This document shows positions 25,541 to 29,207 of a stretch of DNA of 64,000 bases, piece by piece. The DNA comes from a virus. Lineage: Duplodnaviria > Caudoviricetes. Numbering within the stretch: position 1 is the stretch's first letter; each line of letters starts with the position of its first letter. The DNA lies in IMG/VR virus record IMGVR_UViG_3300032030_000015, positions 64,001 through 128,000 of that record, one strand, 5' to 3'. Below the pieces are notes generated by a model. The model worked only from the letters and a program-made list of their open reading frames with translations. It made no database searches and was not told the origin of the DNA. The translations under genes were made by a program, and so were the position numbers.

Positions 25541-26053
25541 TCATTCATCCAACTCCAGCGGATAGCCCTCCTCGAAGTCCTCGTCGTCAGGGTCGGCATC
25601 CCGATTGTAGTCATCGCCCTGCTGCCGTCTGTTCCTGCGCCTTGCGGCGTCGCGGTCGCGCTGCTTCCAGTCGAGCGTGCAGCCCACGTTCCAGAAGTGG
25701 CGATGCGTCTTCTTCGACGGCTCCCAGCGCACGAAGCCGCGTGTGCCGTGCAGCGTCATCTGCTCCTCGGTGTCGCTGATGCCCTGGTCGCGGATGGCAG
25801 GGCACATGAACCCCAGCACACCCATGTCCACCGAGAAGCCGTACTGCACGCGGTTCAGGATTTCGTCGGCAAACTGCTCGAAGACGACCGCCGCCATGCG
25901 CGGGTCAAGCAGCGTCCGCCGCCCTACGCGCTCGGCTATGTAGGCCAGGTCTACCGTGTCCAGCGTCTGCACGCGGAACGTCCAGCCCATCTTCCCCGTC
26001 TTCGGGTTGCGGATGCGCACCTTATGCACTGGTATGTCGTTCTTCCTTGACAT
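25541..26053 (-). CDS. HU/IHF-like DNA-binding protein (Bacteroidota long type)
   Basis: NPKTG arm; VDLAYIAERV...GFSVDMGVLGFMCP pattern. Confidence 0.6.
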   Translation of the reverse strand: MSRKNDIPVHKVRIRNPKTGKMGWTFRVQTLDTVDLAYIAERVGRRTLLDPRMAAVVFEQFADEILNRVQYGFSVDMGVLGFMCPAIRDQGISDTEEQMTLHGTRGFVRWEPSKKTHRHFWNVGCTLDWKQRDRDAARRRNRRQQGDDYNRDADPDDEDFEEGYPLELDE

Positions 26054-26336: not shown

Positions 26337-27560
26337 TCATTTCGGCAACTTGTGCCTGAGCGCCTTCCAGTCGGGCTTCTCGGGCGTCTTCGCCTTGAAG
26401 TTGTAGATGGGCTTGATGACGTCGATGACGTCCACCGTCGGGCCGATCTGCTCGACGATTTCCTGCATGGGCTTGTACACCATGGGGCTCTCGTCGATGG
26501 TCTCGGCGCAGACGCTGGTAGAGTAGATGCCGTCCATCGTGCGCTCGAAGTCCTCCAGGCTGATGCTCTGCTGGGCCTGCTTGCGCGACATGAGGCGGCC
26601 TGCGCCGTGGGGTGCGGAGTAGAGCCAGTCGATGTTTCCCTTGCCTCGGCAGAGCAGCGAGCCGTCGCGCATGTTCATCGGGATGATGAGCCGCTCGCCG
26701 TTGAGCGCCCTCACGGCCCCCTTGCGCAGGATGCGGTGCTTGATGTCGATGTAGTTGTGGATGGTCGTGAAGTTGTAGGGGCTCGGGAACATCCACCCCA
26801 TCGCGTCGCAGATAATCCTGGCCATCGTGTGGCGGTTGTCCTCGGCATAGAGCTGGCACAACTGCATGTCCTTGAGGTAGTGCTCGGCATCCATGCCCTC
26901 GATGAAGGCCAGGTCTTTCGGCACCCGCTTAGCCTTCTGCTTCGCCTCGCGGATGGTGTCTGCTATCTCCTTCTGTCGGCCCTCAGCCTTCAGCCGGGCT
27001 ATAATCTCCTTCTCGTCGTAACCCAGCCCACGGCACAGATATTCCTCTGCCCGCCGCTGCCAGTATTCGCAGACGCGCTTGCCGAGATTACGGCTGCCTG
27101 AGTGGATGACCAGGTACTTCGTGCCGTCGCTGCCCTCGTCCACCTCGATGAAGTGGTTGCCGCCGCCCAGCGTTCCGATGCTGCGCTGCGCCAAGTCTTC
27201 GTCGATGGCCTCGCGGCAATAGAGGCGGTCCAGAAACGGCACGTCCGTCACCGGCTTCTCGTGGACGTTGAAGCCGCTGGGAATCTCGTTGTTCACCACG
27301 CGGTCGAGTTCTTCGAGGTTGATGTCCGTCTTCCCGAGGTTCACCACCAGCATGCCGCAGCCGATGTCCACGCCAACCGTGTTCGGCACGATGCGGTCTT
27401 TTAGCGCAATCACCGTCCCGATGGTGCAGCCCGCCCCGGCGTGGCAGTCGGGCATAATCCTCACGGTGCAATCCTTGTAGGCATCGCACTCGCTCATTTC
27501 CTTAATCTGCCTCTCCGCCGTCTCCTCCAGCGTGGCAGCGTAAATCTTCAGTTTCTCCAT
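26337..27560 (-). CDS. rtcB: RtcB RNA ligase (2',3'-cyclic phosphate to 5'-OH)
   Basis: MPDCHAG, VGVDIGCG, GTLGGGNHFIE, HSGSR, HNY, RKGA, SAPHGAGR and DESP..YK motifs; start MEKLKIYA. Confidence 0.95.
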   Translation of the reverse strand: MEKLKIYAATLEETAERQIKEMSECDAYKDCTVRIMPDCHAGAGCTIGTVIALKDRIVPNTVGVDIGCGMLVVNLGKTDINLEELDRVVNNEIPSGFNVHEKPVTDVPFLDRLYCREAIDEDLAQRSIGTLGGGNHFIEVDEGSDGTKYLVIHSGSRNLGKRVCEYWQRRAEEYLCRGLGYDEKEIIARLKAEGRQKEIADTIREAKQKAKRVPKDLAFIEGMDAEHYLKDMQLCQLYAEDNRHTMARIICDAMGWMFPSPYNFTTIHNYIDIKHRILRKGAVRALNGERLIIPMNMRDGSLLCRGKGNIDWLYSAPHGAGRLMSRKQAQQSISLEDFERTMDGIYSTSVCAETIDESPMVYKPMQEIVEQIGPTVDVIDVIKPIYNFKAKTPEKPDWKALRHKLPK

Positions 27561-27767
27561 ATTGTATGTTGTTAAAAGAGACACAGGCCCGGCGGCGTCG
27601 GATGATGTCAGCGACAAGGACGATAGCCAGAGCAAGAACCGATGCCACACTCAGCAAGAGCAAGGTCATTTCCGGCGGGCGACGGCCCGCAGGCCCCGAG
27701 GGGAGAGTGTCGTGCGGCATCGTCAGCGTTTGTTGGTTTTGATTAAGTAAATCCGCGAAAGGGATTC

Positions 27768-27824
27768 GTGTCTACCAATTCCACCACTTGACCACTGGGG
27801 CCAAGACAGGACTCGAACCTGCAC
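27768..27824 (-). ncRNA. permuted tRNA-like domain 2
   Basis: T-arm GCAGG-UUCGAGU-CCUGU; acceptor CUUGGCC-ccagu-GGUCAAG; UG; D-arm GUG-GAAUUGGUAGA-CAC. Confidence 0.8.
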
Positions 27825-27830
27825 ACTGTC

Positions 27831-27914
27831 ATCAAACGTTCTAACCAGCTGAACTACTTGTGTAAGCACCACAAGGTGGGAGTCGAACCCACGACCTTCT
27901 GAATGTCGTTTGAT
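27831..27914 (-). ncRNA. permuted tRNA-like domain 1
   Basis: Closing stem AUCAAAC/GUUUGAU; T-arm GUGGG-UUCGACU-CCCAC; acceptor CUUGUG-gugcuua-CACAAG; UA; D-arm GUUC-AGCUGGUUA-GAAC. Confidence 0.82.
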
Positions 27915-28043
27915 ACTTGCCAATAGCCCGTAAATGTTGGCACGTGCTACAGAACAAGACCACCTTCCGCTGCCGGTGCGCCGCAGTTTCGCAGTAGATA
28001 CCTTCAGTCTGCGGCTACCTGTGTCTCAATATGTCATAGAACT

Positions 28044-29207
28044 CTATTTCCCCAGCCCGTTCACCCGCTCGTAAACGTCGCGCAGTTCGTTGGGGATGAT
28101 GATGCCCAGGGCGGCTATGCGCTTCGACTCGGCCAGCTTCCACGCTTCGAGGTCGGCGGTCAGCTGCTGGTGGCGCTCCTTCTCGGCGGCGGCCCAGGCG
28201 TTGTACTCGGCCTGCAGCTCGCTGTGCTTGCGGCGCTCCTCCAGGATGTAGTTGTTCAGCTTGTCGCGCAGCACCGACATCTCGCGGTTGAAGTCCTCCG
28301 TGGCCTTCTGCCATTCGGCAGCCTTCGCCTGCTTGTCGGCCTCGATGGTGCGGTCGCGCTCGGCCAGCATGCCGTTCAGCTCGGCCTGCAGGGCGCGGTG
28401 CTCGGCAGCCAGGCGGAAGAACATGCCATCGACGTACTCCTGCGACACCGAGGGCGTGAACTCAATCATCATCGTCTGCGTCCCCTCGCCTGTGGTGCCC
28501 ACGGGGTTGGCGATGACGTGGCGCAAGTTCCTGCGCTCAGTGGCCAGCTTGCCGTCGTCGTGGATGAACTTGCCGATGACGGCAGCCTTCGCCTCCAGGA
28601 GCAACATGCGGTTGCGGTCCTTCACCGACAGCGTGGCCATGTACTCGTCCTCGGTCATCGCCGCCTTCTGCTTCACCTCGGCAGGCATCTTCAGGCCAGC
28701 CTTCAAGCAGAACAGCTGTATCTGATTGTACCCGAAAGCCACCATCGGATTCAGCGACTTCTTCACGTCGGGGAACTTGCCGTCGATGTCGGGCACCTCA
28801 TAGCCGCGCTCCTTCATCCACGTGTCGATGTTCGTGTCTACCTTCGGCACCTCCGCGCCGCCCAGCACCTCCTTGCAGTACGTCGCCAGCGTCGTCTGCT
28901 TCACCTCCGCCAGCAGCCGCTCGCGGGCCTTGATGGCCTCGCGCAGCCATGCTATCAGCGCATGCGCCTCGCCGATGTACGCCAGGCTGTCATACGTCTT
29001 GTCCAGCTGCTCCGCCGTGTTGCCCACCTTGCTCTGCTTCGGCTCGCCGCCGCTCAGCAGGCACACCTTCGTGCCGTAGAAACTCACCCCCGACAGCTCG
29101 TCGGCCAGGTTCTTCACACTCTCCTTCGCCATGTTCGCCACATGGTTCGCGCTCGTCGAGGTCAGTCCAGCCTCGCCAAAATAAATGTAGTCTGATTTCA
29201 TATTCAC
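28044..29207 (-). CDS. coiled-coil protein of unknown function, upstream of the ncRNA and rtcB
   Basis: 387 aa; N-terminal YFGEAGLTSTSANHVANMAKE; long Ala/Glu-rich heptads. Confidence 0.8.
   Translation of the reverse strand: MNMKSDYIYFGEAGLTSTSANHVANMAKESVKNLADELSGVSFYGTKVCLLSGGEPKQSKVGNTAEQLDKTYDSLAYIGEAHALIAWLREAIKARERLLAEVKQTTLATYCKEVLGGAEVPKVDTNIDTWMKERGYEVPDIDGKFPDVKKSLNPMVAFGYNQIQLFCLKAGLKMPAEVKQKAAMTEDEYMATLSVKDRNRMLLLEAKAAVIGKFIHDDGKLATERRNLRHVIANPVGTTGEGTQTMMIEFTPSVSQEYVDGMFFRLAAEHRALQAELNGMLAERDRTIEADKQAKAAEWQKATEDFNREMSVLRDKLNNYILEERRKHSELQAEYNAWAAAEKERHQQLTADLEAWKLAESKRIAALGIIIPNELRDVYERVNGLGK

Follow-up and report, generated by a model that had tools for sequence, protein, structure and literature searches.

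The virus record IMGVR_UViG_3300032030_000015 (IMG/VR; Caudoviricetes) carries, in the gap between the open reading frame (ORF) of a 387-aa protein and the RNA ligase gene rtcB, an RNA that is a real, highly folded structure. This RNA is genetically coupled to the helical protein encoded upstream of it, and the two make up a conserved two-part unit. We analysed positions 64,001 to 128,000 of the record (64,000 nt, hereafter the window); the record is complete at 145,001 bp and has terminal repeats. The explanation that we favour, with moderate confidence, is that the locus is a new two-gene ribonucleoprotein unit which has plug-in tRNA mimics in some lineages. An earlier note on this DNA, made from the letters of the window, had proposed an RNA-repair or tRNA-decoy system composed of the coiled-coil protein, an RNA with tandem permuted tRNA mimics, and RtcB. 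The RNA and the protein withstood our analysis; RtcB did not. Features of the window are listed in the table below, and all RNA feature coordinates refer to its minus strand.

Features of the locus in the window
Feature	Position	Strand	Remarks
Gene of the 387-aa partner protein	28044..29207	minus	ORF; helical, long coiled-coil hairpin
Structured RNA, about 450 nt	27578..28027	minus	conserved 3′ of the protein gene; covariation
P1, 5′ strand of closing helix	28017..28027	minus	pairs with 27578-27588; 10 pairs, 5 compensatory
P2 hairpin, asymmetric internal loop ACUGA/GAAA, apical hairpin P2a	27980..28015	minus	covaries
P3, 5′ strand of long-range helix	27967..27976	minus	pairs with 27589-27598; 8 pairs, 5 compensatory
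Clade-specific hairpin UGCCAA/UUGGCA	27918..27942	minus	window and L001-type relatives only
Module B	27833..27901	minus	36.3 bits against YrlA (model positions 23-89 of 114); helices 5-8
Module A	27749..27822	minus	helices 9-12; YrlA 15.8 bits, tRNA 5′-half 18.8 bits (weak)
P5 helix	27640..27722	minus	27722-27713 with 27649-27640; 10 pairs, 6 compensatory
P6 hairpin within P5	27689-27676	minus	5 pairs
Hexamer block 1, two hexamers, within P5	27666-27653	minus	
Hexamer block 2, five NUNUYG units	27609..27638	minus	predicted single-stranded
U run after the structured RNA	27577-27574	minus	
rtcB, RNA 3′-phosphate/5′-OH ligase	26337..27560	minus	PF01139 7e-62; phrog_1075 9e-130

Relatives of the protein were drawn from viral contigs, metagenomes and one genome per prokaryotic species, and the loci carrying them are designated by L-numbers (L001, L034 and so on). 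In every readable case a related RNA was found 3′ of the protein gene on the same strand, and the pair is known from over 150 distinct loci of phages and Bacteroidales. In 133 of the 189 protein loci, a Hidden Markov Model (HMM) of the 3′ domain of the RNA matched on the same strand no more than 700 nt downstream, and it matched nowhere else in about 1.5 Mb; those of the missed loci that were inspected by eye turned out to hold divergent versions of the RNA. The search was also started from the RNA: a loose DNA pattern picked out 120 places in viral contigs, 20 of which were true RNAs by profile: 19 have the protein directly upstream, one is cut by the end of its contig, and none is without the protein. 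The gene following the RNA varies (a methylase, a radical-SAM-like gene, an HU-HIG gene or tRNAs), and in L001 to L003 the RNA stands after the protein gene though the following gene differs.

This reciprocal linkage bears on an explanation that we consider rather unlikely, in which the RNA acts alone, self-assembling or catalytic like ROOL and GOLLD, and the protein is linked to it by co-transcription or regulation. Such an RNA would resemble ours in being large, ornate, phage-borne and often located in tRNA islands, as ROOL and GOLLD are (bioRxiv 10.1101/2024.12.08.627333), and the absence of a recognisable RNA-binding domain from the protein also fits. However, the linkage is near-absolute over divergent sequences, in phages and chromosomes alike, which is unusual for co-transcription, and Rfam gave no match to ROOL or GOLLD.

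The unit was found in gut and rumen Bacteroidales phages and, patchily, in Bacteroidales chromosomes. Hosts named in the genome records are almost all Bacteroidales (Muribaculaceae, Prevotella, Bacteroides), and some of these records are complete chromosomes. The protein is present in only 8 of 121 Muribaculaceae species genomes, and it is therefore a patchy accessory gene. Since the INPHARED phages yielded only two distant protein matches, the family is absent from well-studied phages. A tRNA gene lies within 1.5 kb of the unit in 47 of 165 distinct loci, sometimes 3 nt past the closing helix P1. Regulators of the WYL/WCX type stand beside about 7 of 80 bacterial loci. Such a regulator is divergently transcribed from the pair in L158 (L158:3878-4930, minus strand, directly upstream of the protein gene) and also in L148, L151, L157, L181 and L192. 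This arrangement suggests stress- or nucleic-acid-induced expression of the bacterial copies, and hints at a role in stress or defence for those under WYL control.

The earlier note had pointed to an inverted repeat bracketing the gap, and this was recovered: GAGACACAGG at 28027-28018 pairs with CCTGTGTCTC at 27587-27578 over 10 bp, enclosing 450 nt. The downstream regions of the homologous loci were then compared. On an alignment of 12 distinct window-type RNAs (A2), RNAalifold produced a consensus of 87 pairs, 45 of them compensatory. The structure that we scored on 12 distinct homologues comprises 85 pairs in 14 helices: 94.0% of its cells are paired, as compared to 34.9-43.6% when partners are slid, and 48 of the 85 pairs have changed on both sides, values matched by none of 500 shuffles. 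G-U cells outnumber A-C cells in the alignment (76 vs 15), which places the fold in the gene-sense transcript rather than in DNA or the other strand. Folding of the window RNA as a single sequence recovered P1, P2, P3 and P5, with z = -1.95.

Signal for the outer part of the fold extends to a class of small RNAs. In 22 distant members, P1, P2 and P2a are 82% paired, vs 27-43% with slid partners, and 14 of 15 pairs are compensatory; P1 covaries here too, as do all seven P2 pairs (stem CCGCAG/CUGCGG) and both P2a pairs. P1 was supplied by hand for this comparison, because RNAalifold on the divergent MAFFT alignment (A3) gave P2 alone. The longest 5′/3′ helix was not a discriminating statistic in the small class (8.9 bp vs 7.1 bp in shuffles). 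Of the additional hairpins listed in the earlier note, all are present, and CCGCAG/CUGCGG is the P2 stem just described; UGCCAA/UUGGCA, as opposed to it, is restricted to the closest relatives and received no covariation support.

A common core emerges from these comparisons. It consists of the P1/P3 end helix, P2 with its ACUGA/GAAA internal loop, P5, and two unpaired runs of NUNUYG hexamers, the first of 2 units and the second of 4 to 6. On the 3′ side of P5 the order is GG, the second run (five units in the window), the 3′ strands of P3 and P1, and the U run. The small RNAs (240-330 nt) retain P1, P2 with an identical internal loop, the long-range end helix and both hexamer runs, and also carry a small hairpin followed by GGAGG-like bases. 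Strict runs of at least three hexamers were detected in 99 of 164 downstream sense segments. No antisense segment (of 164) and no coding segment (of 163) had one, and further downstream the count was 6 of 152. NUNUYG hexamer runs are a hallmark of the whole RNA family. In one clade (L080, L082-L090, L110, L113, L180), whose RNAs have a single tRNA-like module, CUAUCA-type hexamers replace NUNUYG at identical places, so that the periodicity is kept with a changed sequence; no clear co-variation with residue changes in the protein of this clade was seen. A different repeat was noticed in L142 (about 2074-2157), some 400 nt past the protein gene: it has 14 units with a periodicity of 6 nt (12-nt unit TCGTCAAAGTCG), is unlike the hexamers of the RNA and probably belongs to coding sequence of the opposite strand.

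The size of this core also matters for another unlikely explanation, namely that the RNA is a cis-acting element in the 3′ untranslated region (3′-UTR) of the protein mRNA, serving its stability, processing or autoregulation. The RNA begins 16 nt past the protein stop codon in the window, and at most 10 nt past it in many relatives, too close for a promoter to fit between; in the relatives inspected, a terminator-like U run follows P1. Nevertheless, a core of 250-450 nt, 14 covarying helices, tRNA mimics and hexamers exceed what bacterial 3′-UTRs are known to need. Moreover, RNase P acting on the tRNA gene located 3 nt past P1 in several loci would free a discrete RNA.

The hexamer region of the window can be read as protein, which raises the question of whether a small hydrophobic peptide is encoded in the 3′ third of the RNA (ORF 27502-27720, internal ATG at 27669), either as a dual-function RNA or as a small gene. 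We regard this as very improbable. The frame through the hexamers would yield a membrane-helix-like peptide followed by four Arg, and several relatives have an ATG at the matching place. Against this, hexamer blocks 1 and 2 are in phase (0 modulo 3) in no more than 8 of 64 distinct loci, and the least conserved hexamer position is the would-be second codon position while the would-be third positions are conserved. Close relatives show stops or a missing start in that frame, and what is conserved at the end of the ORF, in whatever frame, is the nucleotides that pair in P1 and P3. A small-peptide gene was rejected on these frame and position statistics.

Two tRNA-like modules, whose helices had been placed correctly in the earlier note, occupy the linker between P3 and P5. 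Helices 5-8 of module B and 9-11 of module A are 89-97% paired with compensatory changes, and the T-loop and D-loop GG signature bases are present. Module B is composed of a closing stem of 4-5 bp, an AGGUC variable loop, a T arm (27892-27876), a loop-closed acceptor (27875-27857), U8-A9 and a D arm (27854-27838). It corresponds to a tRNA circularly permuted within the anticodon loop: positions 39-76 come first and are joined by a closing loop to 1-31, which is the topology of YrlA, as the earlier note had recognised. Its closing stem is adjacent to it, and three of four pairs tested show compensatory changes. Module A comprises a T arm (27822-27806), a closed acceptor (27805-27787), UG and a class-II-type D arm (27784-27768). 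Both modules had been described as devoid of an anticodon loop. This holds for module B, but module A has a complete anticodon-like arm (27767-27749), formed by the AAUCC/GGAUU stem that had been taken for an extra hairpin and a 7-nt loop, CUUUCGC. Six of the eight pairs of this stem are compensatory. The loop always has 7 nt, with U at the place of U33 and a purine at 37, and the 'anticodon' among relatives reads UUC, UUG, GCU, GCG, GCA, AUG or UUU. Acceptor loops vary from 3 nt up to an inserted hairpin, and have no CCA.

Module order is reversed in L005, L013, L022, L023 and L029; because each module retains its own stems there, the modules are autonomous. Among about 165 distinct loci, some 18 have two modules, some 13 (the L080 clade) have one and the rest have none. 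As most family members are devoid of them, the tRNA mimics are an add-on to an older core RNA, movable cartridges and not the heart of the system. The clade of the window has inserted two self-contained permuted modules into the variable linker of the core.

The window and six relatives, with the small class represented among them, were searched with Rfam 15 under both gathering cut-offs and E-values; only sub-threshold YrlA and tRNA matches were returned. The YrlA scores of both modules lie below the 69-bit cut-off, those of relatives range from 29 to 34 bits, and no YrlA-like match was found elsewhere in the 145,001-bp genome. We find it barely credible that the tRNA-like parts are remnants of tandem tRNA genes in decay, or that they are a pair of ordinary YrlA genes. 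A Rfam tRNA match of 30.8 bits does cover part of the region, and ARAGORN reports 'tRNAs' of 92-95 nt over the modules in swapped-order loci. The former is, however, a chimera joining the D arm of module B to the T arm of module A, and ARAGORN found no tRNA in the window. The 5′ strands of the acceptors covary with a 3′ strand located upstream, not downstream (helices 7 and 10), and in L003 no complementarity is seen when the parts are taken in the order of a normal tRNA. Ordinary tRNAs were rejected because the acceptor strands are joined by a loop and covary in the permuted order. As for YrlA genes, which the earlier note had envisaged together with a Ro60 gene elsewhere in the genome, the Ro-binding stem is missing and no TROVE/Ro60 gene (PF05731, E<=1) was found in the complete 145,001-bp genome, in a search that detected its positive controls.

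The swapped-order ARAGORN calls ('tRNA-Gln/Lys' at L005:6301-6392, L013:4296-4390 and L023:397-491) are artefacts: each spans the D and anticodon arms of one module plus the T arm of the module after it. RNAs with this module order will be mislabelled by automatic annotation. Separately, an 83-85 nt tRNA-like gene lies directly past the RNA in L034 (4592-4676) and L020 (1754-1836); ARAGORN calls it tRNA-Tyr, and Rfam scores it as tRNA-Sec with 34.4 bits vs a cut-off of 47.

The partner protein has more than 573 relatives, none of which has a Pfam domain. Motifs that are invariant across 25-96% identity (alignment A1) include G-L-T-S-T-S-A-N-H, A-W-L-R-E-A-I-K and I-x-I-P-N. An AlphaFold2 model (predicted local distance difference test, 80) shows two units of helix, beta-hairpin and long helix together with a long coiled-coil hairpin, in agreement with the earlier description of an unrelated helical protein. 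The protein has about 385 aa in the two-module clade vs about 293 aa elsewhere, owing to an insertion of 57 aa and a coiled-coil extension of 36 aa. Searches against Pfam, PHROGs, PADLOC, NCBIfam, the PDB (by sequence profile), Foldseek PDB and VIA-align wide gave nothing specific. BFVD returned one uncharacterised phage protein and the ESM Atlas a hypothetical Bacteroidota cluster alone; fold searches listed only helical hairpins of a generic kind (Z < 7), and the matches listed did not include Ro60. RNA and protein families both appear to be new, with no match in the family libraries searched. The literature examined holds no description of either, and a catalogue of 10,006 candidate viral RNAs (PMC10690425) might hold the RNA unnamed. 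In a complete Muribaculaceae genome, the protein gene (L158:5001-5885; G001:C1:2461558-2462442) has one in-frame TGA: the gene may have become a pseudogene, or the codon may be a recoding site or an error in the sequence.

The product of the window rtcB exceeds the PF01139 cut-off with 210 bits (7.1e-62), and the gene begins 17 nt past the RNA on the same strand. This proximity is what could make protein, RNA and RtcB a dedicated RNA-repair system, a phage analogue of rsr-yrlA-rtcBA, and the RNA ligase gene (PF09414) of L034, two called genes past the RNA and after one 50-codon ORF, points the same way. Yet tblastn with the window RtcB found rtcB in none of 194 related loci, the gene is located 120-220 kb from the pair in three Muribaculaceae genomes that carry it, and the 145-kb phage genome has neither RtcA nor Ro60. 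Such a three-part system is improbable and, as a general rule, largely refuted; RtcB, which the earlier note had included as a component, was rejected as one. It is a fellow traveller in one phage that fits a theme of tRNA damage. L034 is the sole locus besides the window with an RNA-ligase neighbour.

Returning to the ribonucleoprotein that we favour, the protein would bind the RNA core, most likely at the hexamer runs and the P2 loop. The tRNA-like modules would present tRNA elbows, along with one anticodon arm, and may be competitive decoys for tRNA-recognising enzymes such as anticodon nucleases; alternatively, they may serve as adaptors through which these enzymes are recruited, a role proposed for YrlA in the Ro60 particle. 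The decoy or adaptor idea has already been raised for YrlA (PMC7790460). A more specific scheme, which we advance as a doubtful possibility, is a new ribonucleoprotein class common to Bacteroidales phages and hosts, in which copies of a helical coiled-coil protein load on the hexamers of a scaffold RNA, while mimic cartridges (none, one or two modules with variable 'anticodons') titrate or recruit tRNA-targeting nucleases in phage-host conflict.

Several observations weigh against these proposals. The fold of the protein matches nothing informative, and its RNA binding is something that we infer. The ends and the stability of the RNA are likewise predicted, and the short spacing between stop codon and RNA fits a 3′-UTR element equally well as a free RNA. 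Sub-threshold YrlA matches are non-specific, being present in 13 of 14 control genomes. The one-module L080 clade has the short protein, devoid of the insertion, which weakens the argument that modules and protein insertion were gained together. Finally, decoy activity cannot be the core function because most family members have no tRNA mimic; we read the core function of the unit as independent of tRNA mimicry.

If the ribonucleoprotein is real, it would represent a new RNA-protein machine for phage biology, widespread in viruses of gut and rumen Bacteroidales. The pair, with more than 570 protein relatives, was missed by all protein and RNA family libraries searched. It would also mean that tRNA mimicry of the Y RNA kind exists without Ro60, as a movable cartridge in a larger RNA, and the role of the tRNA-like domains of bacterial Y RNAs would become testable in a second, independent system. 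Hexamer arrays and the ACUGA/GAAA loop provide concrete handles for binding and structural studies.

Some additional features of the neighbourhood were recorded. The gene at 25541-26053 on the minus strand, two genes downstream, encodes a protein with an HU-HIG domain (PF18291, 3.8e-05, below cut-off); a similar gene recurs close to the pair in L011 and also in the P0020 contig. Just 5′ of P1, the 385-aa protein class has a conserved motif, CTCTTTGA(C/A)(A/T)TATTG, found at 28028-28043 (minus strand) of the window and in L001, L002, L005, L013, L034 and L115-L117. It resembles the Bacteroidetes -7 promoter box (TAnnTTTG), with the right spacing for a start at P1, and is degenerate in the window itself (TTCTATGA). 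A scan for sigma-70 promoters and terminators gave nothing useful.

The nearest known system is the Ro60-YrlA particle (RF02553; Chen et al. 2014, PMC4201824). Module B shares with YrlA the T arm, the loop-closed acceptor and the D arm, a short stem replaces the anticodon stem, and in both RNAs a long stem is formed by the two ends. In both cases the RNA gene is located beside the gene of the presumed partner, and in this one phage rtcB is also adjacent. Score, Ro-binding stem, size and TROVE neighbour nevertheless all fail. The window RNA has 450 nt vs 80-130 nt, and its score is half of the gathering cut-off; model positions 1-22 and 90-114, where the Ro-binding stem would be, are unmatched, and the end helix P1/P3 belongs to the family-specific core. 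The partner is an unrelated helical protein in a phage genome devoid of TROVE. There are two modules in the window RNA, one with a full anticodon arm, whereas the core, with its P2 loop and hexamers, has no Y RNA counterpart and is mimic-free in most of the family. The conserved co-occurrence of rtcB and rtcA that marks the rsr-yrlBA-rtcBA operon (Hughes et al. 2020, PMC7790460) is not seen with the RNA-protein pair (0 of 194 loci).

Systems of phage tRNA repair and supply (T4 Pnkp/Rnl1 against PrrC; tRNA islands) share a tRNA-centred context with the locus, through its tRNA mimics, its frequent tRNA neighbours and the RNA ligase adjoining in this phage. They rely on enzymes or real tRNAs, whereas here the modules are embedded in a larger RNA and cannot be charged because their acceptor ends are closed. 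Type III toxin-antitoxin systems (ToxIN) also combine a protein gene with an adjacent non-coding RNA containing short tandem repeats, and are patchily carried by phages and bacteria. In our case the RNA is located downstream, the repeats are of 6 nt vs about 36 nt and lie within a large fold, and the partner protein has no endoribonuclease fold or motif. ROOL and GOLLD are likewise large, heavily structured, phage-borne RNAs often found beside tRNA genes; by Rfam they have no match in sequence or structure to the window RNA, and they have no dedicated protein gene, whereas the window RNA is strictly paired with one.

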